Positions 17,605-57,118 are shown, counted from the first letter of the stretch. The stretch is 64,000 bases of DNA from Parcubacteria bacterium C7867-008 (GCA_001189215.1 LFCR01000006.1:840-64839), one strand, 5' to 3'. Numbers and translations: made by a program. The notes: generated by a model not told the origin, from the letters alone.

Positions 17605-17625
17605 ATATACGTAATCCCCACGGAG

Positions 17626-17655: not shown

Positions 17656-17662
17656 GAAACGT

Positions 17663-18169: not shown

Positions 18170-18181
18170 TCCACATGTACA

Positions 18182-18718: not shown

Positions 18719-18730
18719 TCCCCATATCGG

Positions 18731-19306: not shown

Positions 19307-19312
19307 GCTTTC

Positions 19313-40217: not shown

Positions 40218-43055
40218 ATGGCACTTACCAACAACCTTAAACCGCAAGTAGATCTCCCCGTCTGGGAGTGGTGTCGCTTTGCGCCTACGGCATCAGTGGC
40301 CTTGTCTGCATTCGCTACGGCTGATGATGGTAGTGCTCGACATATCTACTACATCTCTGCTTCAACCTTCTATCGCTATGATACGTATGCAGATTCTTGG
40401 CAGCAGCTTGCAACCCCTAACGTAGCACCGCTCACCACTCTCGCACTCAGGTACACCGGATATCGCGGGTACCATGGTCGAATTCTCAGTGCCGGCGCAA
40501 CAAGTGTTCAGATAGGTGGTCTTCGCGGGAACACCCTCAACGGAAAAACAATCAGAATACTCAGTGGCTCTGGTATCGGACAAGACCGTGTCCTTACTTC
40601 CACGGGTGAGACGGTACACGACATGGGGGTTATCACAGGAACTACCACACTCACCCTTGCTGACTCCACTAAGAAATGGAAATTCAATCAATGGTCTGGA
40701 TATACCGTTGGTATTACGTTCGGAACAGATGCCACACAGTATAAGAAGATCCTGTATAACGACACCACGACGCTCTATATAGGTGATGCAAACCTACAGC
40801 CTCATGATCCATGGAATAATCAGGCATTTGCTGCTGTGGCACCATATGCGGTACCAGTTACCACCGCCGGTTCGCAAGCGCACTATCAGATTCTTTCTAT
40901 GAGTTACTCGGTTGCTGCGTGGGACACTACACCTGATTATCGTTCGAACTACACAACGGCAACAGGTGGACTGTATCTCATTTCTTCTTCAGCATCAGCA
41001 CCTTTCTTTACTCTGCAGTACTACGACATCATTCATGATTCCTGGCAGACCAAGACGTGTAACCAAGGACTACTTGCAGCGGCATTGGGTACAGACTGTA
41101 CCTTTGAACGTTTGGCAAAAACGGGAACAGCCTTTCTAAGCTCGACCGCTACGGCGGGTGCCGCACGTACTCTTACTGATACGGTGCAGACTATGACAGT
41201 CGATAGATACTCGAATTATCGACTTCTCATTACAGGAGGTACAGGCGTGGGACAAAGTAGGAGAATAATTTGTAATACAGCAACTGTCTTCACACTAAAC
41301 AAAGCCTGGGATACCAACCCAGACAACACTTCAACCTATGAAATATGGGGTGATTATGACAAAGCATTCCTCGCTGGAGGTGCAGCGGGTGCCATGTATC
41401 AATATTCCCCAAGCAACGATTTCTGGATGCAGGGTAGCAGTTTTGATGATGGTGTGGTTGCAAACATAGCCGTTAAGATGAATGGTTGGGAGGCATTAGG
41501 TGTAACAACTGGCGCCAGAATTGCAGCCGGTGTTACCGCCGTTAACGCAACACCAACAGCAGGCGGTACGGGTTATCTAGTAGGGGACATCCTGACTTGT
41601 TCTGTCGGTGGTACTGGTGCACGTGTGATTGTTACCGCAATTGCACCCACGGGTATTGTTTCGACAATAGAACTTGTGGCATCGGGTACGGTGACGGGCT
41701 TTACAACGGGTACTGGAAAGGCGACCACGGGTGGTACTGGATCAGGTTGTACGATTGAAATAACATCGATTGGTGCAACCTGTCTTATTACAACCGCATC
41801 AGCAAGCTGGTTTAAGACAGGAGATTCAGTAACATTCTCAGGATGTTCTGATGGTGCATACAATGCGGCACACACTATCCTTGGTGCAGGCTCAACCACC
41901 ACATTTGATGTTGCAACCTCTGCAGCAGGTTCTATGGCCGCATCTAACTCACAATCAACAACGGTTATTGTGGACCCAACGAAGAGCTGGACGGTAAACG
42001 AACATGTGGGTAAGCTTGTGCATCTCTCGGTTGCGGGTACTGCTCCTACCGCTCAGATTCGTTGGATAACGGCTAACACTGCAACCACCCTCACGGTGGC
42101 AACCATCGTTGCTGGTGTAAACGGAACATCGAAGTACGCTATCTATGACTCAAAGGTCTTTGGAACAGATAACCAGTTCAAGCCTGCTAACCAGCAGAAC
42201 TGGGGTCATGCATCTGGTGGTTCAACTACAACACTCGCAGACTCCTCGAAGAGTTGGGTTGTTAACTCTTGGGCAGGGTATAAGTTACGTATTGAGTCTG
42301 GAACTGGTTTTGCATCAGGAATAATCTCAATAACCTCCAATACTGCAACGACACTTACGTATACAACACAGTCATTCACACCAGATGCAACTACTCATTA
42401 CGAGATTGCGGATAGCTGGGGTCTAATGACAGCAGCATCAACAACAACGGTAACTGAGACAGCAACTAAAAACTGGACGGTGAACATGTGGGCAGGTAAG
42501 AGGATCCGTATTAGTGGGGGAACTTCTCCTGGACAAGAGGTCTCTATTACTTCAAATACTGCCACTGTCCTAACAACGGCAACATTAACGCTTCCTGATA
42601 CCACCTCAACGTATGCCATCTTGGGTATACCGGCCCGTGGTGCGGGTACACAGCTCTTATGGATCTGGGGGAATACCGATGCCACAACAAAAGGAAAGTA
42701 TGTTCTTTTGCCAAGAGGTGGCGCATCAAACAGCGCGGATCTTTACGATGTTACGACAGCACGTTGGTTATACGGTTACTTCTTCTCACCTCAAGCTGAA
42801 ACATTCACGACCGGTTCTATGTATGCGTATGACGGTGTGAATACTATATATATGCAGAAGGATGCAACAGGTAGGGTGATGGCGTATGACTTCTCAACAA
42901 ATGCAATCACAACACTAGGCACCATACCGTATGGTCACTCAACGGCGATAATAGGGAACCGCATGGAGATTATAGAAACAACAGACGGTCTGAAGTATTT
43001 GTACATGATGCGACACACAGGATCTGAAGTCTGGCGTATGTTGATATTCTTTTAA
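40218..43055 (+). CDS. Large (945 aa) Thr/Gly-rich protein with five copies of a ~50-aa K(S/N)W-x-VN-x-WAG-x7-GTG-x-GQ-x3-I-x-SNTAT-x-LT repeat
   Basis: Five repeat instances in the translation: TKKWKFNQWSGYTVGI..., SNYRLLITGGTGVGQSRRIICNTATVFTLN, TKSWTVNEHVGKLVHL...ANTATTLTVA, SKSWVVNSWAGYKLRIESGTGFASGIISITSNTATTLTYT, TKNWTVNMWAGKRIRISGGTSPGQEVSITSNTATVLTTA. I recognise no domain. Start 7 nt after the upstream stop. Confidence 0.5.
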   Translation: MALTNNLKPQVDLPVWEWCRFAPTASVALSAFATADDGSARHIYYISASTFYRYDTYADSWQQLATPNVAPLTTLALRYTGYRGYHGRILSAGATSVQIGGLRGNTLNGKTIRILSGSGIGQDRVLTSTGETVHDMGVITGTTTLTLADSTKKWKFNQWSGYTVGITFGTDATQYKKILYNDTTTLYIGDANLQPHDPWNNQAFAAVAPYAVPVTTAGSQAHYQILSMSYSVAAWDTTPDYRSNYTTATGGLYLISSSASAPFFTLQYYDIIHDSWQTKTCNQGLLAAALGTDCTFERLAKTGTAFLSSTATAGAARTLTDTVQTMTVDRYSNYRLLITGGTGVGQSRRIICNTATVFTLNKAWDTNPDNTSTYEIWGDYDKAFLAGGAAGAMYQYSPSNDFWMQGSSFDDGVVANIAVKMNGWEALGVTTGARIAAGVTAVNATPTAGGTGYLVGDILTCSVGGTGARVIVTAIAPTGIVSTIELVASGTVTGFTTGTGKATTGGTGSGCTIEITSIGATCLITTASASWFKTGDSVTFSGCSDGAYNAAHTILGAGSTTTFDVATSAAGSMAASNSQSTTVIVDPTKSWTVNEHVGKLVHLSVAGTAPTAQIRWITANTATTLTVATIVAGVNGTSKYAIYDSKVFGTDNQFKPANQQNWGHASGGSTTTLADSSKSWVVNSWAGYKLRIESGTGFASGIISITSNTATTLTYTTQSFTPDATTHYEIADSWGLMTAASTTTVTETATKNWTVNMWAGKRIRISGGTSPGQEVSITSNTATVLTTATLTLPDTTSTYAILGIPARGAGTQLLWIWGNTDATTKGKYVLLPRGGASNSADLYDVTTARWLYGYFFSPQAETFTTGSMYAYDGVNTIYMQKDATGRVMAYDFSTNAITTLGTIPYGHSTAIIGNRMEIIETTDGLKYLYMMRHTGSEVWRMLIFF

Positions 43056-43057
43056 TT

Positions 43058-43927
43058 ATGAATATTGACTACCTTACACAGCTCCTCACGAACCGACTTG
43101 CAGCGCTCGCACTCGCAAAGGACCAGGCATTTCAGTCTGGAGACCTTGAGCGTATCAATACGGTTGATATTGAGATTGCTGATGTAACCAATACCCTTGG
43201 ACAGCTTCGTCTTCTGTCAAATATAAATATTGCTGCAGCAGCAACGAACACGACCGCAGCTCAGATTGTTTCAACAGGACTTGATGCTGTGCAAAATGTT
43301 GTTCAGGGGCCATCGGCAGGAGCAATCATAAATGGATACGACATTTCTGCGTATGCAACGGACCCCCTCTATGAACAGAAAGTGCAGAACATACTTGATG
43401 CCATGCCACTCTTTGTGACGGCTGATGATATTGACCAGTACATTCAGACCACAGCAGCAGGGAGTTCTGTAACTGGAGCCATGATACTCACGTCAGCTGC
43501 ACAGTACGCAATTGATTCGAGACTCATGATCGCAATCATGCAGAATGATTCACAGTTCGGTACCCAGGGAGTAGGGGCACGAACCAATAATCCAGGAAAC
43601 GTTGGCAATACAGGTACGGCGGAACAAATGTTCCCTTCTTGGGAAGAGGGTGTTGGTGCGGTAGCCAGCTGGCTAAGTAGACACCGAGCAGTAGTTATCG
43701 CCGAAGCGCCAATAGTCGTTGAACCTGTTGTCGAACCTGTTGTCGAACCAGCACCTGCTCCAAAGAAAGTTCGAAAACCAAAGGTAGTACCTGAACCAGT
43801 GGAAGAAATTGTAGTTGACGTACCACCTCCTGTTGAAGAAATACCCCTTCCTGTAGAAGTACCTCTTCCAACGGCGACCACAACCCCCACAGGAACTGAT
43901 GATATTACCACCACTACGCCTGCATAG
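43058..43927 (+). CDS. Hypothetical secreted protein with peptidoglycan-hydrolase-like motifs and Pro/Val/Glu-rich C-terminal tail
   Basis: SAYATDPLYEQKV resembles the YATDPxYxxK block of glucosaminidase/FlgJ-type muramidases. IAIMQNDSQFGTQGVGARTNNPGNVGN resembles their N-x-FG block, but the order is inverted relative to canonical. C-terminal (VEPV)3, PAPKKVRKPKVVPEP and TTTPTGT. Confidence 0.4.
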   Translation: MNIDYLTQLLTNRLAALALAKDQAFQSGDLERINTVDIEIADVTNTLGQLRLLSNINIAAAATNTTAAQIVSTGLDAVQNVVQGPSAGAIINGYDISAYATDPLYEQKVQNILDAMPLFVTADDIDQYIQTTAAGSSVTGAMILTSAAQYAIDSRLMIAIMQNDSQFGTQGVGARTNNPGNVGNTGTAEQMFPSWEEGVGAVASWLSRHRAVVIAEAPIVVEPVVEPVVEPAPAPKKVRKPKVVPEPVEEIVVDVPPPVEEIPLPVEVPLPTATTTPTGTDDITTTTPA

Positions 43928-43949: not shown

Positions 43950-44681
43950 ATGGAGGAGATTGATGTATATGTTGCAGAATACGGCGACTACCTAGAAGAA
44001 ATACGTAAGCGACTCTATCGTGTCGTGATAGTGTTTATTGTTTCATTCCTGATTGGCCTTTTCTCCACAAACCTGTTCGTCCACTTCTTCTTAACCTTCC
44101 TTAAGGTTAAGGACGTAATTATAGTTGCCACGTCACCGTTCCAGCTTTTGGATCTTGCCATGACCACAGGATTCTTCCTGGCAACACTTATTACGATACC
44201 GTTTGCTATACAGCAGACTTATACATTCTTGAGTGGGGGGCTGTTGCCACAAGAGCGGAAGATATTCTTCACGCTCATTCCGCTCACGGTCGTCTTGTTC
44301 TGTATTGGATTTACCTACGGATTCACCGTCATGTACTACGCGGTGCAGGTTATTGCCCAAGTGAACATTGGATTTGGTATAGCCAACCTGTGGAATGTTA
44401 CCCAGTTTATCTCGCAAATACTCCTCACCTCAGCTCTACTAGGTCTGATATTTGAATTTCCAATCATATTAACGCTTCTTATACGGCTAGGGGTCTTTCC
44501 GGTGTCATTTCTACGAGCAAAAAGAAGGGTGGCTATTGCCATAATTGTCATTTTTGTTGCTTTACTTCCCCCAACTGATGGACTATCCTTTATGGTAATG
44601 TCCTTGCCGTTGGTGGGCATCTATGAGCTGACGATATTCCTCAACTCATTCTACAAACGGAAAGTACCCTTAGAAAAATAA
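43950..44681 (+). CDS. tatC: Sec-independent protein translocase TatC
   Basis: 243 aa with 6 TM helices. Conserved N-terminal amphipathic region (HLEELRKRL-like: YLEEIRKRLYRVVIV) and typical loop lengths. Confidence 0.8.
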   Translation: MEEIDVYVAEYGDYLEEIRKRLYRVVIVFIVSFLIGLFSTNLFVHFFLTFLKVKDVIIVATSPFQLLDLAMTTGFFLATLITIPFAIQQTYTFLSGGLLPQERKIFFTLIPLTVVLFCIGFTYGFTVMYYAVQVIAQVNIGFGIANLWNVTQFISQILLTSALLGLIFEFPIILTLLIRLGVFPVSFLRAKRRVAIAIIVIFVALLPPTDGLSFMVMSLPLVGIYELTIFLNSFYKRKVPLEK

Positions 44682-44692: not shown

Positions 44693-44860
44693 ATGTTTGG
44701 ACTCGGATCAAATGAACTGATAATAATTGCAGTCATACTCGTGCTCCTCTTCGGTGCAACTCGCATCCCAGCACTCACCAAAGGTATTGCTGAAGCGATT
44801 CGCGAACTTCGCGGAGCGTTCAAGGACGAAGAGTTTACAGACGGCAAGAAGAAATCCTAA
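44693..44860 (+). CDS. tatA: Sec-independent translocase TatA/E (55 aa, absent from ORF track because it is under 60 aa)
   Basis: Manual translation gives MFGLGSNELIIIAVILVLLFGATRIPALTKGIAEAIRELRGAFKDEEFTDGKKKS. This has the canonical TatA TM helix, hinge (LFG) and amphipathic helix. Confidence 0.75.
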   Translation: MFGLGSNELIIIAVILVLLFGATRIPALTKGIAEAIRELRGAFKDEEFTDGKKKS

Positions 44861-44999
44861 TCTCGCAACGAGACGGATACGGCCTCTAAATCAGTCAGAA
44901 ATGACGGGTATAGGGGCCTTCTTCATGCATTCCTAATGGTAGAATTACAAGAACAGTGACTTTTCCGTAGGGATGAGTATCTGGGGCATAGCGTGTGAT

Positions 45000-47900
45000 A
45001 TGAATCTACATTTTCCCTACAAAGCCTCCAATCACATTCCTGCCTGGCGGGCTTTTCTACTGATACTTACATTTCTCTCACTACCGCTCATAACCTTTGC
45101 TGCATATCAAGAATTTCTCCCGGGCGCTCAAGTGCAAATAGGGGAGTTTGTATACGATGACGACTTCCAAGCAACCACAACGGCAAATTGTACTGTAACG
45201 GTATACGACCCAACAGGAGCGGTTGCGGTAAATGCAGCATCTATGACGGCAACAGCGAACAGCTGGTATTCATACTCATTCACCCCTGATTCTATTGAGG
45301 GTACCTGGCCTGCAATTATGTCTTGCGGGTCTCAACTAAGCGGAGATCTTATAAAAGGCGATAAAACATTTATTGTTACTTCAAACATTGTTTCCTCTAC
45401 ATCAGTAGCAGCACTCGTTAATGCAAACACAGCAACGGTGGTAGCTTCAGCAAGTTCCTCTCTCGCTGCCACATTACCGGTTTCGATATGGGGGTACTCA
45501 GCGCGAACGCTGACATCTTTTGGCACACTCGTGAACGACATCTGGTCTAACGGCACACGATCCCTCACATCAGGGGTCGCAATAGCTAATGATATTTGGG
45601 CTGCAACAACACGCACCCTTACTGGTGCAGGTCTCGACTCAGGTTCACTCGCAGTCCAGTCTGATGTAACAACCGCCTCATCGTCACTAGGCGCTGCAAT
45701 AACAAACTCTCAGACAGCAATTAATGCCAACACCAATGCGACGGTACTCACTGCCACTACGTCTCTTGCAGCGATCATAAATGCTAATACCAATACGATT
45801 GTGGGCACTGCATCAAGTTCAATCGGAAGTTCGCTTGCATCTATTGCGTCATCAATCGTTTCGATCCCAACCAATGTCTGGGCAGCAGCAACACGTACCC
45901 TCACGTCAGGCACGAGTATTGCGGCAGACATTTGGGCTTCAACAACAAGAACCCTCACGGGAGCGGGACTTGATACTGGATCACTTGCGGTACAGTCTGA
46001 CGTAAGTACCGCATCATCATCTCTTGGCGCGGCCATCACAAATAGTCAAGGTGCTATTAATACAAATACAAATACGATAGTAGGTAATGCATCAACCTCA
46101 CTCGGAATTTCACTTACTTCGATCGCGTCATCAATTACTTCCATTCCTGCTAACGTCTGGGCAGCGGGCACACGCACACTCACTGGCTTCGGTACGTTGG
46201 CAGCGGATGTCTGGACGAATGGTACTCGCACCCTTACTGGTGCAGGTCTCGACTCAGGTTCACTCGCTACACTGGGTGATCTAAATACAGCATCCTCATC
46301 GATAACCGCTTCTGTAAACGCAAACACTAATAGCGCTATCCTTACTGCAACATCTTCAATAGCGTCAGTAGTAAATGCAAACACTAATACGATAGTAGGG
46401 AATGCCTCATCATCCCTTGGTACCTCTATTGCAAGCGTGGCATCTTCAATTGCCTCTATCCCAACCAATGTCTGGGCAGCAGCAACCCGTACTCTAACTT
46501 CAGGCACGAGTATTGCAGCAGATATCTGGGCTTCAACAACAAGAACCCTCACGGGAGCAGGCCTAAGTTCAGGCTCACTCGCCGTACAATCTGACGTAAC
46601 CACTGCGTCATCATCTCTCGGTGCTGCGATCACAAACTCTCAGACAGTAATAAACAGCAACACCAACAGTGCCGTACTTGGTGCGTCAACATCACTTGCA
46701 GCAGTGGTTAACGCTAACACCAACACTATTGTTGGGAATGCTTCAACCTCACTCGGCACGACACTTACTTCAATTGCTTCTTCCATCACATCAATACCAA
46801 CCAATGTCTGGGCAGCTGGCACACGTACCCTCACCGGATTTGGCACACTTGCAGCGGATGTATGGACATCAGGAACACGCACTCTCACGGGAGCAGGCCT
46901 AAGTTCAGGCTCACTCGCCGTACAATCTGACGTAACCACCGCTTCGTCATCACTAGGTGCTGCGATCACAAACTCTCAGACAGCAATTAACGCAAACACT
47001 AATGCGACTGCACTCACCGCGAGTACGTCACTTGCAGCTGTTGTAAATGCAAATACGAATACAGTAGTGGGTAACGCATCTACTTCACTTGGCGCATCGC
47101 TTACTTCAATAACATCTTCTATCGCAGCACTACCTGCATCAGTCTGGAACGTTGCTACCAGCACTCTCAATACCGCCGGCTCAATCGGCAAGCAGCTTGC
47201 ACTCAATGTTGACGCTGCAATTTCTAGTGTCACGGGAGGGGTTGGTTCACTTTCAGCTGCCGATGTCTGGGGCTATTCAACACGTACTCTCACCGGAGCT
47301 GGTCTCTCATCAGGATCTCTCGCCGTACAGTCTGACGTAACCACCGCTTCGTCATCACTAGGTGCTGCGATCACAAACTCTCAGACTGCCGTAAATGCAA
47401 ACACAAATAGCGCAGTCCTAACTGCATCAAGCTCGGTAGCTGCAGTTGTTAACGCAAATACCAACACTATTGTTGGTAACGCATCTACATCACTCGGCAC
47501 CTCAATTGCTAGTGTTGCCTCATCAATTGCTTCAATACCTACTAACGTCTGGGCAGCAGGTACGCGCACACTCACTGGCTTCGGAACACTAGCTGCTGAT
47601 GTTTGGGTCAGTGGTACTCGCACACTCACCGGCGCTGGTCTAAGTTCAGGCTCACTCGCAGTCCAGTCTGATGTAACAACTGCATCATCATCTATTGGCT
47701 CAGCCATCACAAACTCTCAGACTGCAATTAATGCGAATACGAACTCTGCCGTACTAACTTCAAGTACATCACTCGCTGCAGTCATTAATGCGAACACTAA
47801 TACTCAGGTACTGAACGCTTCCACGTCTCTTGGAACGACCCTTACTTCAATTGCCTCGTCCATTACGTCTATCCCAACAAACGTATGGGCTGCAGCAACC

Positions 47901-49187
47901 CGTACTCTAACTTCAGGAACAAGTATCGCAGCAGATATCTGGGCCTCTACAACCAGAACCCTTACAGGCGCTGGTCTCTCATCAGGCTCACTCGCCGTAC
48001 AGTCTGACGTAACCACCGCGTCCTCATCTATTGGAGCAGCAATAACAAATAGCCAAACAGCTATCAATGCGAATACCAACTCGCAAGTATCAGCAGGAAC
48101 AGCAAGTGTTAACTCAAACACCAATACCAGTATTAGTACGGCATCATCTTCACTAGGTGCATCTATAGCACTTGTACCAGCTAGCGTGTGGGCATACTCA
48201 ACTCGCACACTGAGTAGCTTCGGTGCGCTAGCAACAGATGTTTGGAGTGCCACTACACGAACTCTCACCTCGCTCACACTTTCTTCTCAGAGTCCGTGGA
48301 CCGTGAACATGTCTGACTTCGGAGCAATATCAGCAGGAGACACGTATCGGGCAACGGTAACAACAATCTATAACGGTACACTTACCGATTCAGCGAGCCT
48401 ACCACTTATCACGGTCTATGACCCAACCCGTAACGTTGTGGTCTCTGCGGCAGCAATGACGCGCACAGGAGTAGGAACCTACGAGTACTCGTATGTAACA
48501 AGCCCAACTGCAGAGGGCGGTGTATGGGAAAGTATTATTTCTGCGACGGTTGAAACCGGAAAGACTCTGCCAGGAAATGACTACTGGAATGTCACTACAG
48601 CTCCTGCACAGGTGGTCATCACAAGTATTGGTTCAACGCAGGTACCTAATATAAGTGCAAATGTACGTATCACGAACGAAGGTGACATACCGTACGAATA
48701 CTCGTATGAGTGGTGTGTTGTATCAGACCCAAGTAATGCTTGTGGCGGGGGAGACGATACCTACTATGGTTCTGCAGCGAAGCTCATCTCACCGGGAGTA
48801 GACTTTGATACAACCCTCACTGCAACCGTGCCAGTACCAGGTGTCTACTACTTCAAACTCGCCGTGTATTACGGAACGGAGATATCGCGTGCATCACGTC
48901 TGTTCACTGCTACTGCTGCAACAACAGGCGGAGGGGGTAGTGGTGGCGGAAGTGGGGGAGGTAGTGGTGGAAGCGGAGGAACACGACCCTCTACTCCCGG
49001 CTCTTGTTCAGATAGTCGTATTGCAGACATTAACTGTGATGGACGAGTTAATGGTATAGACTTCTCAATCCTTCTTGCGTTCTGGAAGACCAACCCACCA
49101 TTCGCTAATCCACGCGTCGACCTTAATGCAGATGGTCACGTTGATTCGGTGGACTTCTCAATTCTTCTCTACAACTGGGCTCGCTAA
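45000..49187 (+). CDS. Giant secreted fibrillar repeat protein (~1,395 aa) with C-terminal dockerin module
   Basis: Signal peptide MNLHFPYKASNHIPAWRAFLLILTFLSLPLITFAA. An N-terminal beta-sandwich-like domain is followed by ~10 tandem ~93-112-aa repeats (WAAxTRTLTxGxxIAADIWxSTTRTLTGAGLSSGSLAVQSDVTTASSSLGAAITNSQTAINANTN...GNASTSLGTSLTSIASSITSIPTNV). A second beta-sandwich-like domain and a Gly/Ser linker lead to the dockerin, a duplicated Ca-binding segment DINCDGRVNGIDFSILLAFW...DLNADGHVDSVDFSILLYNW. The ORF-track start at 44973 is also possible. Confidence 0.7.
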   Translation: MNLHFPYKASNHIPAWRAFLLILTFLSLPLITFAAYQEFLPGAQVQIGEFVYDDDFQATTTANCTVTVYDPTGAVAVNAASMTATANSWYSYSFTPDSIEGTWPAIMSCGSQLSGDLIKGDKTFIVTSNIVSSTSVAALVNANTATVVASASSSLAATLPVSIWGYSARTLTSFGTLVNDIWSNGTRSLTSGVAIANDIWAATTRTLTGAGLDSGSLAVQSDVTTASSSLGAAITNSQTAINANTNATVLTATTSLAAIINANTNTIVGTASSSIGSSLASIASSIVSIPTNVWAAATRTLTSGTSIAADIWASTTRTLTGAGLDTGSLAVQSDVSTASSSLGAAITNSQGAINTNTNTIVGNASTSLGISLTSIASSITSIPANVWAAGTRTLTGFGTLAADVWTNGTRTLTGAGLDSGSLATLGDLNTASSSITASVNANTNSAILTATSSIASVVNANTNTIVGNASSSLGTSIASVASSIASIPTNVWAAATRTLTSGTSIAADIWASTTRTLTGAGLSSGSLAVQSDVTTASSSLGAAITNSQTVINSNTNSAVLGASTSLAAVVNANTNTIVGNASTSLGTTLTSIASSITSIPTNVWAAGTRTLTGFGTLAADVWTSGTRTLTGAGLSSGSLAVQSDVTTASSSLGAAITNSQTAINANTNATALTASTSLAAVVNANTNTVVGNASTSLGASLTSITSSIAALPASVWNVATSTLNTAGSIGKQLALNVDAAISSVTGGVGSLSAADVWGYSTRTLTGAGLSSGSLAVQSDVTTASSSLGAAITNSQTAVNANTNSAVLTASSSVAAVVNANTNTIVGNASTSLGTSIASVASSIASIPTNVWAAGTRTLTGFGTLAADVWVSGTRTLTGAGLSSGSLAVQSDVTTASSSIGSAITNSQTAINANTNSAVLTSSTSLAAVINANTNTQVLNASTSLGTTLTSIASSITSIPTNVWAAATRTLTSGTSIAADIWASTTRTLTGAGLSSGSLAVQSDVTTASSSIGAAITNSQTAINANTNSQVSAGTASVNSNTNTSISTASSSLGASIALVPASVWAYSTRTLSSFGALATDVWSATTRTLTSLTLSSQSPWTVNMSDFGAISAGDTYRATVTTIYNGTLTDSASLPLITVYDPTRNVVVSAAAMTRTGVGTYEYSYVTSPTAEGGVWESIISATVETGKTLPGNDYWNVTTAPAQVVITSIGSTQVPNISANVRITNEGDIPYEYSYEWCVVSDPSNACGGGDDTYYGSAAKLISPGVDFDTTLTATVPVPGVYYFKLAVYYGTEISRASRLFTATAATTGGGGSGGGSGGGSGGSGGTRPSTPGSCSDSRIADINCDGRVNGIDFSILLAFWKTNPPFANPRVDLNADGHVDSVDFSILLYNWAR
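45470..48300 (+). repeat. Intragenic tandem repeat array (~280-340-bp units, about 10 copies, many more than 90% identical at DNA level)
   Basis: For example, ccaaccaatgtctgggcagcagcaac(a/c)cgtac(c/t)ct(c/a)ac(g/t)tcaggcacgagtattgc(g/a)gcaga(c/t)at(t/c)tgggcttcaacaacaagaaccctcacgggagc recurs at about 45.87, 46.46, 47.87 kb. Sister variants occur at 46.80 and 47.55 kb. Confidence 0.8.
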
Positions 49188-49198: not shown

Positions 49199-50047
49199 AT
49201 GAAACCTTTCTTCCTTTTCGCTCTTATATCACTCACGGTACTTGCACCAACAATGGTGCATGCTGCAGTGTTACAGATGGTTCCATCGCCCGCCACTGAA
49301 GGACAGGAATTCTCAGTACGAGTACAACTTCTTCCGGAAGGAGAGGCGCTTAATGCAGTGGAAGGGAACATACATATACCAGAGGATCTACAAGTGACTC
49401 GAATTAGCACAGGAGGATCAGCGCTCACCTTGTGGCCAGCACAGCCAGCATTCTCACATGCTAGTGGAGAAATATCATTTGCAGGTGGTACTCCAGATGT
49501 GCTCTCTTCAGGCGCTTCCGCACAATTGTTCACTATCTATCTAAAAGGCGACACACAAGGATCCTATAAAATCACCCCTGAAGATATTGCAGTCTTTAGG
49601 GCAGACGGTACCGGTACACGAATAAGCGCATCTGCTCCTGTTGTTTCTATAGCGCTTGGGACAGAAGTAGTTCCTGCTGAGAATTTAACTGATAGGAGTG
49701 CACCATATGACGTTACTGCGGCAATTGGAACGGACCCATCACTATTTGATGGGGCACCATTTGTATATGTATATGGTCGAGACGAAGGTACCGGTATCGC
49801 ATCATATCAAGTAAAAGATGGGTGGTTTGCACGCTATCAAACGGTTGGACAATACTACGTTCTCACCGCTCCTCAGAATACTCAGCCAATATGGGTACGT
49901 GCAGTTGATGGGGTAGGGAATATACGTGCTGTGCATGTACCCCACACCGGAGGAGTCTTGTACTACGGAGTATTTGTTCTTGCAGCACTTCTTATGATCC
50001 TTCTGGTACTCCTAGCAGTACGGTATCGCAAACGATTAATCTCCTGA
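49199..50047 (+). CDS. Cohesin-domain protein with C-terminal transmembrane anchor
   Basis: Signal peptide MKPFFLFALISLTVLAPTMVHA. The cohesin-like beta-sandwich signature is AVLQMVPSPATEGQEFSVRVQLLPEGEALNAVEGNIHIPEDLQVTRIS...GEISFAGG...AQLFTIYLKG. C-terminal TM VLYYGVFVLAALLMILLVLLAV plus RYRKR. Confidence 0.6.
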   Translation: MKPFFLFALISLTVLAPTMVHAAVLQMVPSPATEGQEFSVRVQLLPEGEALNAVEGNIHIPEDLQVTRISTGGSALTLWPAQPAFSHASGEISFAGGTPDVLSSGASAQLFTIYLKGDTQGSYKITPEDIAVFRADGTGTRISASAPVVSIALGTEVVPAENLTDRSAPYDVTAAIGTDPSLFDGAPFVYVYGRDEGTGIASYQVKDGWFARYQTVGQYYVLTAPQNTQPIWVRAVDGVGNIRAVHVPHTGGVLYYGVFVLAALLMILLVLLAVRYRKRLIS

Positions 50048-51489
50048 TGAAAAAGAATACTCATCAATTCCTGTTCCTCTTCATCCTGCTGGTACTGCCA
50101 GGGGTATCGAGCGCAGCAACGATGAGTCTTTCGCCGTCCTCTACCTCAATCAACACTGGAGATATTGTCACCGTGCGCGTTGTGGTAAACCCGACAGGAA
50201 CGGCAATAAATAATGCAGAAGGTATTGTTCGGTTCCCCCCAGATATGCTTAAGGTGCTGTCGGTGAGTAAATCAAGTTCCATATTTCCTCTATGGGTAGA
50301 GGAACCATACTTCTCAAACAGTGCAGGTACCATATCGTTCAATGGAGGTGTGCCTAATCCGGGAGTAAGTTCTCCAGGAACTACACTATCTATCTCTTTC
50401 AATGCATTACGACCTGGTACAGCAACTCTCAGTATTTCTGATTCAGCCGTACGTGCAAATGATGGTTTTGGTACCAACGTTCTTACAAATTCCTATGGAA
50501 CACAACTCACCATAACCTCAGCTGTAGCAGTACCTACTCCAACGCCAACCAAGCCGGTAGAGAGCGGTACTAAGACTCCTTCAAGCGGACCGATTCAAAT
50601 CACCTCAAGTACTCATCCTGATCAATCGGTCTGGTATGCAAATGCGAACCCATCCTTTACCTGGGATCTACCAAAAGGTGCAACTTCAGTTCAGTTAGGC
50701 ATTGATCAATCATCAAGCGCTGTTCCAACCGTAACGTATGCGAAGCCAATTGAAGAAAAGACCATAGATACCGTCGAAGACGGCATATCGTACTTTGCTC
50801 TTAGATATCGATCGGGCTCAACATGGAGTGAGGTGAGTCGATATCAAGTCCGAATCGATACGGTAGCACCGGTAATTACGAGCCATGACTTCCTCTATGA
50901 TCAGAGTCAGGATGCAGTACTCGTACGCGCTACTGGTATGGACAGTGGTTCAGGTATATCAACCTATGAGATAGCAGTTGATGGAGCAGAACCGATTGTC
51001 ATTCAAGGGAATACCTTTGCAGAACACTCACAGTCCATCAAGGTACGTGGTGCAGGCATACACAGCATTACCTTGACCGCCTTAGATGCTGCCGGTAACC
51101 GTACCCGTGTTGATGGATCTATCTCAGTACCACCATCGCTTAGTACTCAAATACTCTTCCGCATCGGTCCGATAGCATTCAATCTCCTCTCGGTACTCAT
51201 CATCATGAGCCTGCTCCTCATACTTGCCCTCATGGCAGCGCTTCTTGAGTGGCGCACTATTCTCGGATATAAGTCTCGTCGTGATCCAAACATTCCACTA
51301 ATCCGTAAGGATATGCACCGAGGCTTCCTTAAGATGAAAGAGAATATGGCAAAGGATATTCGCGCACTGGATCGTGCGCGCACCAAGAGAGATCTCTCTC
51401 GAGAAGAGCTCGCGCTCTACAGGCGACAAATGGAGAATATGACAGCACTTGAGCGTCATATTGCTAAGCAGCTTACAGACGCTGAATAA
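50047..51489 (+). CDS. Cohesin-domain protein with Ig-like middle region, C-terminal TM anchor and charged cytoplasmic tail
   Basis: Signal peptide ...LVLPGVSSA. Cohesin-like block ATMSLSPSSTSINTGDIVTVRVVVNPTGTAINNAEGIVRFPPDMLKVLSV...GTISFNGG...TLSISFNALRPG. A Pro/Thr linker precedes the TM LLSVLIIMSLLLILALMAALL and a ~90-aa cytoplasmic tail. Start codon overlaps the upstream stop. Confidence 0.6.
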   Translation: MKKNTHQFLFLFILLVLPGVSSAATMSLSPSSTSINTGDIVTVRVVVNPTGTAINNAEGIVRFPPDMLKVLSVSKSSSIFPLWVEEPYFSNSAGTISFNGGVPNPGVSSPGTTLSISFNALRPGTATLSISDSAVRANDGFGTNVLTNSYGTQLTITSAVAVPTPTPTKPVESGTKTPSSGPIQITSSTHPDQSVWYANANPSFTWDLPKGATSVQLGIDQSSSAVPTVTYAKPIEEKTIDTVEDGISYFALRYRSGSTWSEVSRYQVRIDTVAPVITSHDFLYDQSQDAVLVRATGMDSGSGISTYEIAVDGAEPIVIQGNTFAEHSQSIKVRGAGIHSITLTALDAAGNRTRVDGSISVPPSLSTQILFRIGPIAFNLLSVLIIMSLLLILALMAALLEWRTILGYKSRRDPNIPLIRKDMHRGFLKMKENMAKDIRALDRARTKRDLSREELALYRRQMENMTALERHIAKQLTDAE

Positions 51490-51973: not shown

Positions 51974-52507
51974 ATGACCTCACTTAACCCCACCGTCATT
52001 GTGGTTGTGGCGATACTCGCCCTATTTCTCATAAGTATTACAGTTTCCAAGTACGCGATACACGATAACTTCACTCGTACACGCTTCGTTATGAGTGCAT
52101 TGTTTGCATTCATAGTTGCTACGCTCACCATTTCATTCTGGCGGTTTGCATTTATGACACTCCCATATACCATACCCGCAATGCTTGCCGGTATTTTACT
52201 CGGATACCTTATCGGCGTACGTACTGAGCAACAGAAGATCGTAACCAACGGTATTGAGCACTATATGGAACGGTTTGCACATATTGAACACAAGGACGTG
52301 AAGAACCTAACCTGGTGGAGTGTTATCAACTTCTATTCAATCATGTGCGGTCTTGTCCTCATCAACCTTATCGGTTTCACCAATGTAATCCTTCAAGGAT
52401 CACCAGGGTTCATTATTGGAACGAGTGTCGTGGGGGCTGCATTTATTGGTTCTATTCTTCCGTACCTATATCACCTCTGGACACTTCCTTGTGGTGAACG
52501 TTGCTAA
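51974..52507 (+). CDS. Hypothetical 5-TM membrane protein
   Basis: Hydropathy only. Confidence 0.3.
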   Translation: MTSLNPTVIVVVAILALFLISITVSKYAIHDNFTRTRFVMSALFAFIVATLTISFWRFAFMTLPYTIPAMLAGILLGYLIGVRTEQQKIVTNGIEHYMERFAHIEHKDVKNLTWWSVINFYSIMCGLVLINLIGFTNVILQGSPGFIIGTSVVGAAFIGSILPYLYHLWTLPCGERC

Positions 52508-53346
52508 GAGAGTGCAATTGCTAGACTGAATCCGACCAACAGAATAAGAGAGTAGAAGAACGTCTTTCGTGCCCATCGGGCATCGTTTTGTACAAAGAAT
52601 CCTGCGCCCGCAATAGAAACCCATCCAATGGTGAGAATGGTCATAGGAATTGTATAGATGAGACCAAGAGTATTAACGAGATACAGTGCGTACACAGCAA
52701 CAGCAAATAAGACTGCATGCACAAACATTAATACTTTCGTTGGCAGTATCCCCATAGACACGGGCATCACCGGAAGCTTTGCATTGCGATAGTCCTCTAA
52801 GCGGAAGATTGCGATAGCAAAGAAATGCGTCATCTGCCAACACACAAGAATGATAAAGAGGAGAACAGCTGTTTCATTCAATACATTCATAACCGCCACA
52901 TATCCCACTACCGGCGGCACAGCACCCGCTGCAGCTCCGATAATCGTACTGTGTACCGTCAGACGTTTTGCGGGAGTATAGAGTGCAATGTATGCGAACA
53001 CTCCTAAGAGCGTAATAAGGAAGGTGAGGAGGTTGGTAAAGAAGTAGAGCGAACCAAGACCGATCACAATGAGTACTGCACCAAATATAAGTGCACCACG
53101 TACAGGGATCCTTCCATTTGGAATAGCACGTCCTTGGGTACGTTTCATGTGCACATCAATATCCCGATCCATCACGTTATTTACTACGCATGCTCCAGCA
53201 ATAGAAAGGGAAAGACCAAGTATGGTGGCTACTAGAAGAGGGAAGGATACCGCTACTCCAGCAGCAAAGACGAAGGCAGCAAGCGCCGTCATCGCATTTC
53301 CATATACCATTCCTGGCTTTGTGAGGCGATAGTATTCTTTCATCAA
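52504..53346 (-). CDS. cyoE: Protoheme IX farnesyltransferase (heme O synthase)
   Basis: UbiA-family motif NNVMDRDIDVHMKRTQGRAIPNGRI with 8-9 TM. Last gene of the oxidase operon. Confidence 0.85.
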   Translation of the reverse strand: MMKEYYRLTKPGMVYGNAMTALAAFVFAAGVAVSFPLLVATILGLSLSIAGACVVNNVMDRDIDVHMKRTQGRAIPNGRIPVRGALIFGAVLIVIGLGSLYFFTNLLTFLITLLGVFAYIALYTPAKRLTVHSTIIGAAAGAVPPVVGYVAVMNVLNETAVLLFIILVCWQMTHFFAIAIFRLEDYRNAKLPVMPVSMGILPTKVLMFVHAVLFAVAVYALYLVNTLGLIYTIPMTILTIGWVSIAGAGFFVQNDARWARKTFFYSLILLVGFSLAIALS

Positions 53347-53717
53347 TGTAGTTCGTGTGCGGGTGACACCATACCATCCTCATACAGCTCCTGCGTGGTG
53401 AGGGGCATCATATGGAGATGTTCAAGATTACTCATGATCCAAAGGGTACCCACTATAACAATCGCAATGATTAGTCCTGTTATCGAGAAGATAACGAGGT
53501 TCCATCGCGGCTTTGATTCTGAACCAAGATGAAGAAAGAATATCAACTGAACAAACAGCTGAATGAGCGCGGTGATAACAATCGCAGGAACAGCTAACGT
53601 ACCCAGCTGCGGTGCTACCCAAAATGCTAAGAGAGTGAGGAATATCGAAAGAGCAAAGCCCAGTACATATGAGCCCAGTGTTCCGTGCGGTATATCCGTG
53701 TGTGCGTGTTTGGTCAT
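53343..53717 (-). CDS. cyoD: Quinol oxidase subunit IV (CyoD/QoxD-like)
   Basis: 3 TM helices. N-terminus MTKHAHTDIPHGTLGSYVLGFALSIFLTLLAF resembles CyoD. Start at the internal Met to abut cyoC. Confidence 0.65.
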   Translation of the reverse strand: MTKHAHTDIPHGTLGSYVLGFALSIFLTLLAFWVAPQLGTLAVPAIVITALIQLFVQLIFFLHLGSESKPRWNLVIFSITGLIIAIVIVGTLWIMSNLEHLHMMPLTTQELYEDGMVSPAHELH

Positions 53718-54283
53718 AGGGAGCCAAGTAAGTATACGAGGGAGAACAGACAGATCCATACAATATCGAGGAAGTGCCAGAAGAGAGAGAAGTACACAAT
53801 CCTCTTACTCATCTTAGGTGTAAGGCCACGAATGCCTAGATAGATGAATAGGGCAATGAGCCACGAGAGTCCAACAAAGATATGTAGTCCGTGTGTCCCA
53901 ACGAGCGTAAAGAATGATGAAAGGAAGGCACTTGCTGCCCAGCTGTGTCCTTCGGACACAAGCATACCGAACTCGCTCAACTCCATACCAAGGAATGTGG
54001 CACCAAGAGCAAACGTAGCGAGAAGAGAGAGCCATACGCCGACAGTATTCTTTGCCCGAGCTGCCAGTAGTGCAAGACCGCACGTAAAACTGCTTGTTAG
54101 AAGAATAAGAGTCTCAATCAATACGAATGAACGATCGAAGAGTTCAGCACCGCCAGCACCACCAGCCGTCTGTGTGTGCAGTACCGCATACGCAGCAAAC
54201 AGGGAAGCAAAGAGAATACAGTCACTCATGATGTATACCCACAGTCCAAATGAAACCTGTTCGTGTGTGTCGTGTTTCTTCAT
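53714..54283 (-). CDS. cyoC: Quinol oxidase subunit III
   Basis: 189 aa with 5 TM helices. FGLWVYIMSDCILFASLF...HWHFLDIVW (the W-HFVD-VVW-like C-terminal motif of subunit III). Confidence 0.8.
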   Translation of the reverse strand: MKKHDTHEQVSFGLWVYIMSDCILFASLFAAYAVLHTQTAGGAGGAELFDRSFVLIETLILLTSSFTCGLALLAARAKNTVGVWLSLLATFALGATFLGMELSEFGMLVSEGHSWAASAFLSSFFTLVGTHGLHIFVGLSWLIALFIYLGIRGLTPKMSKRIVYFSLFWHFLDIVWICLFSLVYLLGSL

Positions 54284-54285
54284 AC

Positions 54286-56253
54286 CTATTTATGGTGACG
54301 TTGCTCCGTCGCTTTCACGAGGTGCGCAGGGACTACATATTCTGTTTCATCAGCAAAGGAACGAACAACAATGGTAACGAATATACCGATGAGTGAAACA
54401 GGGAGTAACCACCACATGTGCCACACCATGCCGAATCCGAACAGGAATGAGAACCCTGCGATTAGGAGGCCAACGCAACTATTCTTTGGAAGGAGTATGT
54501 CCTGATACCCAGCTTCATGTGTCTGCTTCTTCTCTTTCATGGTCCACCACGCATCCCGACCATGTACGGTTGGGATATGTGCAAAGTTATAGAACGGGGC
54601 AGGTGATGGTACAGACCATTCAAGTGTTCGTCCATTCCAATAGTCACCCGTACGATCCATATGGCGCTTACGTTCAAACGTACTTACTGCATAGCATATG
54701 AATTGTGCTGCAGCGCCAAGCGCTATGATTCCTGCACCAACCGCAGCTAGTACCAAGAGCGGATGATAGCCACTTGCTGCATCCACGAAATCAAGACGAC
54801 GTGTCATACCCATCATGCCGAGTATGTATAGCGGTATGAATGCCATAGCAAATCCAACGATCCAGAGCCAGTACGAAACCTTACCCAGCATCTCGTTCAG
54901 ACCAAAGCCAAAGATCTTGGGGAACCAGTATGCAAATCCACAGAAGTATCCAAAGAGTACTCCACCAATAACCATGTTATGGAAGTGTGCAACAAGGAAG
55001 AGACTGTTGTGCAACTGGAAGTCCACTGCCGGCACAGACATAAGTACACCGGTCATGCCACCCAAGATGAAACTGAATAGGAAGCCCATGAACCAGAGCA
55101 TGGGCACAGTGTATTTAATACGTCCACGGAACATAGTAAAGATCCAATTGAATACTTTTACACCCGTTGGTATGGCGATAACCATCGTTGCAATACCAAA
55201 GAATGCGTTAACATTGGCTCCAGCACCCATGGTAAAGAAGTGGTGTACCCACACACCAAAGGAGAGTAAAACAATGGCCATGGTCGCTACCACCATAGAG
55301 GTGTATCCAAACAATCGTTTCTGTGAGAAGACAGGAACGATCTCAGAGAAGATACCAAATGCAGGAAGGATAAGAATGTACACCTCCGGGTGACCCCATG
55401 CCCAAATAAGGTTTACATACATCATCGCGTTACCCCCAAGATCGGTACTAAAGAAATGCATACCAAGCACACGATCAAGTGCAAGCATTGTCATGGTGCC
55501 GGTAAGGATGGGGAAGGCAAAGAGCACGAGTAGCATTGAACCTAGCACAGTCCAGACAAAGATCGGCATGCGCATGAGCGTCATGCCTGGTGCTCGTTCC
55601 TTTATAATTGTCACAATAAAATTCACGGCAGCAAGAAGCGTTCCGATACCGGAGATCTGGAGTGCCCAGATGTAGTAATCAACTCCAACACCGGGACTGT
55701 ATGCGATCTCAGAAAGAGGAGGATAGGCAAGCCAGCCCGTCGCAGCAAATGCGCCAACCACAAGAGAAAGATTCACTAGCACCGCACCGGTAGCGGTAAG
55801 CCAGAAACTGATGGAGTTTAGAAGAGGGAAGGAAACATCACGTGTACCAATCTGAAGAGGGAGAATGCAGTTGATGAGACCAAACATGAATGTCATGGCC
55901 ACAAAGAAGATCATAATCACACCATGTGCAGTGAATACTTGCGCAAAATGGTCAGGAGAGAGATAGCCTGTCCCTGCACCAACCGCGACAGCCTGCTGGC
56001 TACGCATCATGAGCGCATCAACGCCACCGCGTGCAAGCATGAGACCTGCAAGAATCAGATACATGATACCGATTCTCTTAGCGTCTAGAGAGGTGAGCCA
56101 TTCAGTCCACAACCATTTCCAGCGTTTCGTAATAGTAAGGAGAAGCACTACAGAAAGTGCACCGCCCACCACAATGAGCTGTGCGCCAGTTTCTATTGGG
56201 CCATGTATAAAAGCTTCGGGGGTAAGGATACCGAACATATTAGTGGTGCTCAA
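54286..56253 (-). CDS. cyoB: Heme-copper quinol oxidase subunit I
   Basis: 655 aa. WAWGHPEVYILILPAFGIFSEIV, HHFFTMG, the VAHFHNMVIGG His ligands and 14+ TM helices are unmistakable. Confidence 0.95.
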   Translation of the reverse strand: MSTTNMFGILTPEAFIHGPIETGAQLIVVGGALSVVLLLTITKRWKWLWTEWLTSLDAKRIGIMYLILAGLMLARGGVDALMMRSQQAVAVGAGTGYLSPDHFAQVFTAHGVIMIFFVAMTFMFGLINCILPLQIGTRDVSFPLLNSISFWLTATGAVLVNLSLVVGAFAATGWLAYPPLSEIAYSPGVGVDYYIWALQISGIGTLLAAVNFIVTIIKERAPGMTLMRMPIFVWTVLGSMLLVLFAFPILTGTMTMLALDRVLGMHFFSTDLGGNAMMYVNLIWAWGHPEVYILILPAFGIFSEIVPVFSQKRLFGYTSMVVATMAIVLLSFGVWVHHFFTMGAGANVNAFFGIATMVIAIPTGVKVFNWIFTMFRGRIKYTVPMLWFMGFLFSFILGGMTGVLMSVPAVDFQLHNSLFLVAHFHNMVIGGVLFGYFCGFAYWFPKIFGFGLNEMLGKVSYWLWIVGFAMAFIPLYILGMMGMTRRLDFVDAASGYHPLLVLAAVGAGIIALGAAAQFICYAVSTFERKRHMDRTGDYWNGRTLEWSVPSPAPFYNFAHIPTVHGRDAWWTMKEKKQTHEAGYQDILLPKNSCVGLLIAGFSFLFGFGMVWHMWWLLPVSLIGIFVTIVVRSFADETEYVVPAHLVKATEQRHHK

Positions 56254-57118
56254 TATGATCCATCACTGGCATGGACATGAATGAATTTAGGATAGCTGAG
56301 AATGGCATGGTCACGCTTCCATAATACCGTACCGGCCCTGTATCGCTTGGCTCTGCAAGTACGGCATAGGTCTCGGGAGTAAGTGCAGCCCCTGATGCTT
56401 TAGCGTCTTTTACCCAATTTTCAAAGTCATCGTCTTCAAGTGCACGTGCGGTAAAGGTCATTTGTGAAAATCCTTCACCGCTGTAGTTGGCAGAACGACC
56501 AGCGAAATCTCCTGGTTCAGGAGCAATAAGGTGTAGGGATGTGCTCATGCCGGTCATTGCATACATCTGACCTCCAAGAGCAGGAATCCAGAATGAGTTC
56601 ATGGGTGCATCTGCCGTGATATGAAATTCAATAGGTGCATCTGCAGGGAATGCCACTTCATTCACGCTAGCAATTCCTTGTTCTGGGTATATGAACAACC
56701 ACTTCCAAGGTAATGCGACCACCTCGACCACCACCGGATCCTTTGGATGGTTGAGGGCACGCATTGGATCTAGTTCATGCGTACTACTCCAAGTGAGAGC
56801 AGCAAGAACCAGTACGATTTCGAGTGGTACAGACCACCAGATCAATTCCTCCATTGCGGAGTTTTCCCAGTTTGGGGTGTACTTCGCTTTGGTGTTTTCA
56901 GCACGGTAGAACCAACCAACAAATATAATCAGTATGAATACCGGTATTACAACGATAAGCATCAGGAATACCGTGCGCACCATAAGATCTCGCTCTAGAA
57001 GACCAATAGTGCCAGCTGGATCTAGTAGCGGAAATTGACCTCCGTGTGCAACTACCGTTAGCAGCACAACAAATCCTATGATGCCGAGAGACAGGGGAAT
57101 GAGTAACCGGGACTTCAT
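56240..57118 (-). CDS. cyoA: Quinol oxidase subunit II (CuA-less CyoA type)
   Basis: Signal/TM, then VVEVVALPWKWLFIYPEQGIASVNEVAFPADAPIEFHITADAPMNSFWIPALGGQ. CuA Cys/His ligands are absent, as in quinol oxidases. Confidence 0.85.
   Translation of the reverse strand: MKSRLLIPLSLGIIGFVVLLTVVAHGGQFPLLDPAGTIGLLERDLMVRTVFLMLIVVIPVFILIIFVGWFYRAENTKAKYTPNWENSAMEELIWWSVPLEIVLVLAALTWSSTHELDPMRALNHPKDPVVVEVVALPWKWLFIYPEQGIASVNEVAFPADAPIEFHITADAPMNSFWIPALGGQMYAMTGMSTSLHLIAPEPGDFAGRSANYSGEGFSQMTFTARALEDDDFENWVKDAKASGAALTPETYAVLAEPSDTGPVRYYGSVTMPFSAILNSFMSMPVMDHIEHH

Follow-up and report, generated by a model that had tools for sequence, protein, structure and literature searches.

An old eight-unit repeat array in a putative dockerin-bearing surface fibre gene of Parcubacteria bacterium C7867-008

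Results

The fibre gene and its domains

We analyzed a 64,000-nucleotide (nt) stretch of DNA from Parcubacteria bacterium C7867-008 (GCA_001189215.1 LFCR01000006.1:840-64839), hereafter the window, in which positions are counted from the first letter. Our subject is a single gene in this window and the operon around it: an open reading frame (ORF) at 44973-49187 on the plus strand, listed with 1404 amino acids (aa), that encodes a repeat-rich, putative surface fibre and that we refer to as the fibre gene. An identical 1404-aa gene is called in contig L003 of the JGI assembly. The real start of the gene is probably the ATG at 45000, since its ortholog opens with MNLYF...

From this start the protein, as read from its sequence, begins with a Sec-type signal peptide (45000..45104, +) that has a basic n-region, a hydrophobic core and an FAA/Y cleavage-like site. 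The signal peptide is followed by an N-terminal Ig-like, MG2-like beta-sandwich domain (45117..45359, +), which we propose to be the distal tip of the fibre. The Pfam MG2 (PF01835) match to this domain has an E value of 4.9e-5 and, at 24 bits, lies under the gathering score of 32.8; the same family reaches 37.3 bits in the homolog P0061 and is precomputed on most fibre homologs. Next comes a degenerate unit, unit 0 (45360..45623, +; aa 130-217), in which a short helix segment is joined to three W-motifs. It is 44-54% identical in amino acids to the full units, and a hidden Markov model (HMM) of the unit matches within it at 139-199 and 190-217. Eight full repeat units then occupy 45624..48269 (+), each read as a long amphipathic helix rich in S, T, A and N and then two 18-aa motifs of the form W-x3-(T/S)R(T/S)LT.

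Beyond the array, a conserved beta-rich C-terminal region (48297..48932, +) combines a second MG2-like domain with a domain that carries an EWCVV...CGGGDD cysteine pair. This region is 50-75% identical over 80 loci and contains invariant columns in our alignment A3, and MG2 is matched at its position in the homologs P0006 and P0061. A Gly/Ser linker (48936..48992, +), in which Tandem Repeats Finder (TRF) reports a 12-nt period at 48936-48971, leads to a type I dockerin (49023..49166, +; aa 1351-1398) with two Ca-binding F-hand repeats, DINCDGRVNGIDFSILL and DLNADGHVDSVDFSILL. The Pfam match to this dockerin (Dockerin_1, PF00404; E 6.4e-7, 29.9 bits) is over the gathering score of 22.9, and an internal duplication of the domain pairs 49026-49075 with 49119-49168.

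Five ORFs on the minus strand (45710-46039, 46046-46633, 46640-46969, 47381-47710 and 47804-48277; all within 45710..48277) lie wholly within the plus-strand gene, share one antisense frame and are mutually paralogous. This bears out the suggestion of an earlier note on this DNA that they are shadows of the repeats and not genes; for annotation, antisense ORFs inside the fibre gene are artefacts.

An array periodic at the protein level

The earlier note had described, at about this place, near-perfect tandem repeats of ~280-340 bp in about 10 copies, with two alternating sub-variants. A periodic array does lie inside the ORF at 44973-49187 (+) and the unit size is roughly right, but the count is eight full units plus the one degenerate unit. 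Anchored on the motif GAGL(D/S)xGSLA (aa 218, 330, 423, 528, 640, 775, 887 and 999), with the last unit ending at aa 1099, the full units span 45624-45959, 45960-46238, 46239-46553, 46554-46889, 46890-47294, 47295-47630, 47631-47966 and 47967-48269. Their lengths, in the same order, are 336, 279, 315, 336, 405, 336, 336 and 303 nt (93-135 aa, for a module of ~112 residues). The unit HMM scores every full unit at 123-184 bits, so the periodicity at the protein level is far above chance, and the unit alignment (A4) contains 39 invariant columns. Both sub-variants exist as well: WAAATRTLTSGTSIAADIWASTTR (A-type) occurs exactly three times, at aa 303, 501 and 972, and the WAAGTRTLTGFGTLAADVW.xGTR type (B) three times, at aa 396, 613 and 860, and they alternate along the array in the order A,B,A,B,C,B,A,terminal.

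The near-perfect identity claimed for the DNA, by contrast, fails: copies are 60-78% identical in nucleotides. Codon-aligned units are 62-89% identical in amino acids and 60-75% identical in nucleotides, a DNA repeat search likewise finds 300-nt copies to be 60-75% identical, and the best 80-residue windows in a diagonal scan reach 92% amino acid identity vs 76-78% nucleotide identity. The longest exact DNA repeats in the array measure 56, 56, 41 and 32 nt, and exact repeats of at least 20 nt cover just 26% of it. One of the 56-nt repeats (copies at 46926..46981 and 47331-47386, +) is a candidate gene-conversion patch and also the site at which a Logan contig breaks; the copies of the second lie at 46548..46603 and 46884-46939 (+). 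TRF, a check that the earlier note had itself proposed, reports no long-period array in 43-51 kb and two 12-nt microrepeats only. Adjacent units fall short of the nucleotide identity, at least ~90% and detectable by TRF, that marks a near-identical DNA array. The pattern is in essence the one that the note had set against its own claim, periodicity at the amino acid level without high nucleotide identity, although the amino acid periodicity found here is strong.

Age of the array

At codons for identical residues, the same codon is used in a fraction of 0.30-0.55 across unit pairs, where 0.32 is expected from the gene's codon usage. Nei-Gojobori (NG86) estimates between units give a synonymous divergence (dS) of 0.95-3.0 (median 1.9), a nonsynonymous divergence (dN) of 0.10-0.37 and a ratio of the two (omega) of 0.03-0.23, and TCN and AGY codons occur together in 3 of the 15 conserved Ser columns. 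In an ortholog search that scanned one genome per species, the ortholog in C7867-004 (locus L005) proved to be a fibre of 1413 aa with eight units and 75% identity in the C-terminal domain. It has in common with the window a 19-aa deletion in unit 2, a 23-aa insertion in unit 5 and a 7-aa deletion in unit 8. Since the eight units of C7867-004 correspond to those of the window, unit-specific indels included, the array is older than the split of these species.

As judged from the aligned sequences, these comparisons establish that the array is old, with its eight units and their indels already in place in the common ancestor with C7867-004, and that purifying selection holds the copies alike as protein while their synonymous sites have drifted near saturation. 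The recent expansion suggested in the earlier note is refuted both by dS values of about 1-3 and by the eight-unit architecture, with its indels, common to the C7867-004 ortholog. A word-indexed protein search with the fibre as query gave a best match that was 50% identical and returned neither the query's own protein nor the C7867-004 ortholog; such a repeat-rich query may have saturated the candidate list of that search.

Slow homogenization within lineages

Units are more alike within a species than between species. The mean amino acid identity of the window units to each other is 0.75, and that of the C7867-004 units to each other is 0.76, compared with 0.70 for positional orthologs and 0.67 for non-positional pairs between the two species. 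Thirteen columns are species-diagnostic, with one residue in at least 5/8 units of one species and another in at least 5/8 of the other. In 300 synonymous-codon shuffles that kept the protein and its codon usage, the longest exact repeat averaged 20 nt and reached a maximum of 32 nt; the observed repeats of 56, 56 and 41 nt exceed this maximum and thus represent patches of shared DNA ancestry. The A-type motif, WAAATRTLTSGTSIAADIWASTTR, is not in C7867-004, and in the window it lies in the non-adjacent units 1, 3 and 7, where its copies agree at 24/24 amino acids and are 81-90% identical in nucleotides, over the 60-75% average of the array.

These patterns show that units have been slowly homogenized within each lineage, and their simplest reading is occasional short-tract gene conversion acting on an otherwise diverging array. 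Of the ongoing concerted evolution that the earlier note proposed, it is this slow or weak form that finds support, and the fibre gene offers a clean case of slow concerted evolution on an array of fixed architecture.

Assembly and copy number

Over 21.4 kb, the JGI contig L003 is 100% identical to the window. The Logan contig L004 (SRR2043728) starts at window position 47357, inside the copy of the 56-nt repeat at 47331-47386 and 30 nt short of its end, a break that is presumably to be expected of a small-k de Bruijn assembly. This break indicates that the hazard here is fragmentation and not collapse, and the separately assembled, eight-unit C7867-004 ortholog also argues against collapse. 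We consider collapse of the window array unlikely and its sequence probably correct. The assembly hazard raised in the earlier note is therefore real insofar as assemblies break at the repeats, but no collapse is documented.

The same tendency is seen across the family. In 22 of 80 loci the fibre gene runs off its contig at the 5' end, contigs end no more than 1 kb upstream of the C-terminal domain in 19/80 and no more than 1 kb downstream of it in 1/80, and eight loci have 100-N gaps inside the fibre ORF. About a quarter of public metagenome-assembled genome (MAG) contigs stop inside the fibre gene, and the pattern across the family accounts for this.

Uninterrupted reading frames number 58 and measure 21-2211 aa, the shortest being artefacts; the 34 that are at least 700 aa long span 701-2211 aa, and the longest in-frame exact repeat in these 34 is 15-352 nt (median 57). 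Some relatives resemble the window in combining 94-96% amino acid identity with 75-82% nucleotide identity (L005, L051, L057, L062 and L052), and some have truly perfect repeats (L055, L008, L054, L046 and L079); these five and L047 carry exact repeats of 170-352 nt. The homologs P0001 and P0002 have flanks that are 94-99.6% identical, yet they measure 1057 vs 951 aa and differ in repeat content, so copy-number change does occur in the family. The variation in copy number that the earlier note anticipated is thus found across the family, but not between the two closest species, C7867-008 and C7867-004, with 8 vs 8 units.

Structure and distribution of the module

We modeled units 3-5 as a monomer with AlphaFold2 (AF2), using an alignment of 60 sequences. 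The model contains one continuous helix per unit, at aa 539-617 (79 residues) and aa 651-733 (83 residues), with a predicted local distance difference test score (pLDDT) of 85-90. The hydrophobic periodicity of the helices is 3.7-3.75 residues, hendecad- or pentadecad-like, and the predicted helices therefore show the combination of great length and regular periodicity that characterizes coiled-coil adhesins. In composition, the helices contain 18% S, 17.5% T, 17% A and 8% N (about 60% together), no Glu and almost no Lys, and the residues of the repeat region are almost uncharged. N-x-S/T sequons recur once per unit in 45624-48269 (GNAS(T/S)S), and relatives carry LNNISA. The recurrence of these sequons, with a Ser+Thr content of 36%, suggests possible glycosylation of the stalk.

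The unit profile matches 532 of 1.84 billion cluster representatives, many of them contig-end fragments, and finds no match in the PDB at E values up to 10. Searched as a whole against PDB sequences, the fibre protein recovers only the Gly-Ser linkers of single-chain variable fragments (scFv) and weak dockerins. NCBIfam has nothing for the fibre protein, and PHROGs contributes two weak families of unknown function that match the W-motif and nothing else. We set aside Pfam matches of the fibre to DUF7032 and DUF6271, in which no single stretch passes and which look compositional, and likewise a series of unexpected Pfam labels that homologs carry (SpoVT_C, GLTP, COG6, spectrin and others), which are sums of weak coiled-coil-like matches. 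We had considered the W-motif as a possible phage tail-fibre repeat and abandoned this when a tblastn search of one unit against 50,697 phage genomes gave no match. Across the libraries searched, then, the module has no Pfam, NCBIfam, PDB or phage relative.

Neighboring genes

The fibre gene belongs to a tight same-strand run that comprises tatC, tatA, the fibre gene and genes for proteins of 282 and 480 aa. The last three genes are 12 nt apart or overlapping, and a scan for promoters and terminators within the operon gave nothing convincing. The 282-aa protein, putative anchor 1 (49199..50047, +), has a signal peptide, a cohesin-like domain and a C-terminal transmembrane helix, and BLASTP aligns it with the 480-aa protein at E 1e-12 over the cohesin domain. 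The 480-aa protein, putative anchor 2 (50047..51489, +), is 100% identical to AB203_02245 of C7867-008. It has a signal peptide, a predicted cohesin at aa 24-157, a P/T linker and two Ig/FN3-like domains, and its C-terminal part consists of a transmembrane helix (aa 380-411) and then cytoplasmic helices. The portion after the transmembrane segment, aa 412-480, is a ~70-residue cytoplasmic tail of charged helices, which could link the fibre to an intracellular partner.

Sequence searches of both neighbors against the PDB returned nothing useful. The AF2 model of the 480-aa protein has a pLDDT of 88.5, and in this predicted model the cohesin region shows the nine-stranded beta-sandwich (jelly-roll) of the cohesin fold. 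Foldseek ranks 2w1n (cohesin plus FN3) at the top for this model and also retrieves the cohesins 6kgf_A/C, 1g1k_A and 2vn5/2vn6, with target template modeling (TM) scores of 0.70-0.76 and root-mean-square deviations of 3.0-4.2 A. Many homologs of the 480-aa protein carry PF00963 and are named cohesin domain-containing, and homologs of both the 282-aa and the 480-aa proteins lie downstream of the fibre gene in 80/80 related loci. From a dockerin over its cut-off, a cohesin fold in the neighbor and this universal co-occurrence, we infer that the dockerin would dock into the neighboring membrane-anchored cohesins.

Upstream of the fibre gene, tatC lies at 43950..44681 (+; Pfam TatC E 1.4e-36) and a 55-aa tatA/E at 44693..44860 (+; NCBIfam TIGR01411 E 1.6e-12, below the model cut-off). 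Where related loci include sequence upstream of the fibre gene, most have TatC there, and the tatC-tatA pair is directly upstream in L001, L002 and most of L005-L084. The homolog P0034 is even annotated as a fusion of TatC and dockerin, but twin arginines are missing from the signal peptides of the fibres. In the window, the signal peptide of the fibre reads ...AWRAFLL... with a single Arg, and the N-termini of 61 fibre homologs have K-rich n-regions and AxA sites, with an RRxFL-like string in P0001 only. Despite the adjacent tatC-tatA, we therefore rejected export of the fibre by the twin-arginine translocation (Tat) system, whose motif (S/T-R-R-x-F-L-K) is absent; judged by its N-terminus, the fibre is unlikely to take this route. 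Before tatC, 40218-43927 (+) encodes a 945-aa protein without a Pfam match and a 289-aa glucosaminidase-domain protein; homologs turned up at the upstream side in few loci only (L005, L060, L070, L074 and L083).

Discussion

The locus as a whole is probably best explained as encoding a secreted surface fibre of ~1,400 residues, in which an old, slowly homogenized stalk of eight modules ends in a dockerin and is accompanied by cohesin-anchor neighbors. We propose that each ~112-residue module forms one ~80-residue amphipathic alpha-helix plus a linker of two W-x3-TRTLT motifs, and that several chains join into a non-heptad coiled-coil rod. The dockerin would plug into the membrane-anchored cohesins and tether the fibre by its C-terminus, and the N-terminal Ig-like domain would be presented at the distal tip, as a spacer or an adhesin. 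Under this model, the number of modules would set the reach of the fibre, with each 80-residue helix adding ~12 nm in a serial arrangement. Module number appears to vary widely among species, but not over short time scales in this lineage.

Several observations weigh against this reading, and four alternatives can be considered. With regard to the DNA, the array might be a recently expanded or actively homogenized run of near-identical repeats, with an unreliable copy number that varies among strains by homologous recombination. Such an array would fit the protein identity of up to 89-92%, the assembly that breaks at a 56-nt repeat, the 170-352-nt exact repeats in the six relatives listed above, and the differing repeat content of P0001 and P0002 between near-identical flanks. 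The negative TRF result, the nucleotide identity of 60-75%, the dS of 1-3, the longest exact match of 56 nt, the different-species ortholog with the same eight units and the same indels, and the identical sequence of a second assembly all speak against it, and for this gene we regard the idea as already contradicted and give it next to no credence. A caveat to our own reading is that L003 could come from the reads that gave the window, so that it would not count as independent evidence on copy number. An old array without gene conversion is a subtler proposal, in which the likeness of units within a species would come from shared codon bias and from parallel selection, for instance if all units adapted jointly to a single packing partner or glycosylation system. 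Near-saturated synonymous sites are consistent with this proposal. In conserved Ser columns the TCN and AGY codon families are both represented, as would be seen under convergence, and these columns include the Ser at the lineage-specific 'NSQ' position, where the two codon families hint at some convergence; parallel selection could thus be partly behind the apparent concerted evolution. In addition, the lower nucleotide identity between the window and C7867-004 is partly confounded by the GC content of the two genomes (48% vs 56%, PMC4508563). Parallel selection alone is nonetheless hard to reconcile with 13 diagnostic columns in at least 5/8 units of both species, with in-frame identical runs of 41-56 nt that were never reached in 300 synonymous shuffles, and with a derived 24-aa motif in three non-adjacent units at 81-90% nucleotide identity vs the 60-75% array average, and we consider a history free of conversion improbable.

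The proposed architecture can be challenged as well. The AF2 model of the repeats is weak overall (mean pLDDT 66; predicted TM score, pTM, 0.29), with low confidence in the W-motif linkers, and a Foldseek search of this model against the PDB gave no match. The eight helices could fold back on one another, in one chain or a few, as a compact antiparallel bundle, or could form a lattice in the manner of an S-layer, in which case unit number would not translate into fibre length. The Gly-rich, flexible linkers of ~35 residues between the helices, the hydrophobic periodicity of 3.7, which is typical of straight-helix bundles, and the lack of confident inter-helix geometry in the model (pTM 0.29) would all suit a bundle. 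On the other hand, the repeat region between the conserved end domains ranges from about 0.6 to 5.9 kb across species, a span that a serial rod easily tolerates and a closed bundle does not, since the end domains of a bundle would flip between odd and even numbers of helices, and the Foldseek search that found no match for the model also found no known bundle; we therefore view a compact fold as somewhat unlikely. A further alternative concerns the tether, since the dockerin might not bind the neighboring cohesins at all. The fibre would then be released, or held on a host-cell glycan or another scaffold, and the adjacency of the genes would reflect co-regulation only. Dockerin-like modules do occur outside cellulosomes, with partners unknown, and the Pfam Cohesin (PF00963) match to the 480-aa protein of C7867-008 (E 0.004, 17.7 bits) is below the gathering score of 24.1. 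Against this stand the fixed-order co-occurrence in 80/80 loci, the confident prediction of a cohesin fold, and the layout of both neighbors, each of which combines a signal peptide with a transmembrane anchor at its C-terminus, as would be expected for an anchoring scaffoldin, and we judge an untethered fibre unlikely.

Our preferred model of an anchored, modular fibre shares features with several known systems. Like the cohesin-dockerin pairs of cellulosomes, the operon encodes a C-terminal type I dockerin with two F-hand repeats after a Gly-rich linker and a predicted cohesin-fold partner with a signal peptide and a cell anchor, and cargo and anchor are co-encoded. It differs from cellulosomes in that the cargo is a non-enzymatic repeat fibre and not a glycoside hydrolase, in that the anchors have a single cohesin and a C-terminal transmembrane helix in place of SLH domains or sortase, and in that the host is a reduced-genome Parcubacterium without cellulolytic context, in which the joint is a proposed one. 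With streptococcal M protein, the fibre shares a long (here predicted) alpha-helical surface structure, tandem-repeat blocks in alternating sub-types, C-terminal attachment with a distal N-terminus (here inferred) and a size that differs between lineages. The repeats of M protein, however, are short, frequently near-identical as DNA, and subject to recombination over epidemiological time, whereas the fibre units are 112 aa long, 60-75% identical in nucleotides and part of an array that is stable across a species split. The fibre is also unlike M protein in its non-heptad periodicity (3.7 residues), its near lack of charge and the absence of an LPXTG motif.

Trimeric autotransporter adhesins (TAAs) such as YadA and BadA likewise alternate coiled-coil segments with short connectors, set stalk length by module number, and show non-heptad (pentadecad-like) periodicities and polar core residues (Asn). 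Unlike these adhesins, the fibre system has no beta-barrel translocator and no outer membrane, and we found no sequence or Pfam relationship between the two. Alp/Rib, the G5-E arrays of SasG/Aap and others of their kind are also cell-surface proteins with a length set by tandem modules. Those arrays are >90-95% identical in DNA and the window array is not, although some relatives of the fibre, with perfect repeats of 231-352 nt, do fall in that regime. Pfam and NCBIfam matched no family-specific anchor in the fibre, neither an LPXTG sortase signal nor a YadA-type beta-barrel, and its C-terminus is the dockerin. By analogy, the fibre would work like a cohesin-dockerin-anchored stalk of the M-protein or TAA kind, but it is a member of neither adhesin family, and its array is no DNA repeat of the variable-number tandem repeat (VNTR) type.

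Parcubacteria presumably live in attachment to other cells, and we know of no structures identified as mediating this attachment. The universally conserved cassette of a fibre plus cohesin anchors is a concrete, testable candidate. As a tentative extension, it is possible that the operon is a lineage-wide attachment organelle of Paceibacteria/Parcubacteria, a non-enzymatic, cohesin-dockerin-tethered coiled-coil fibre built from a module that has no Pfam model or structure. More speculatively, long-lived arrays may persist through synonymous recoding, which would keep modules alike as protein and leave recombination without a substrate. The repeat phenomenon in itself is ordinary, and it is the conserved cassette, in the candidate phyla radiation (CPR), and its uncharacterized module that are modestly novel. 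In the searchable literature we found no description of a dockerin/cohesin system of this kind in Patescibacteria or Parcubacteria. C7867-008 is a MAG from Hanford groundwater, and the paper that describes this genome goes no further than 'large proteins with internal repeats, indicative of adhesins' (PMC4508563).

Outside the fibre operon, 52504-57118 (-) encodes a cytochrome bo3-type quinol oxidase operon (CyoE/UbiA, COX4_pro, COX3, COX1 at E 1.7e-144, and COX2); this oxidase of C7867-008 was already reported by Nelson & Stegen 2015 (PMC4508563). Many of the MAGs with a Paceibacteria-type fibre operon are labeled 'uncultured Candidatus Saccharibacteria' or 'Gammaproteobacteria', and these labels are probably placeholders or wrong. 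A type IV pilus cluster occupies 12494-20077 (+) of the window, with a PilB-like ATPase at 12494-14260, a tandem set of four pilin-like genes at 17048-19306 that carry N-terminal methylation motifs, and a prepilin peptidase at 19313-20077, and in the related locus L001 genes for PilM, PilO and PilB lie a few kb from the fibre operon.

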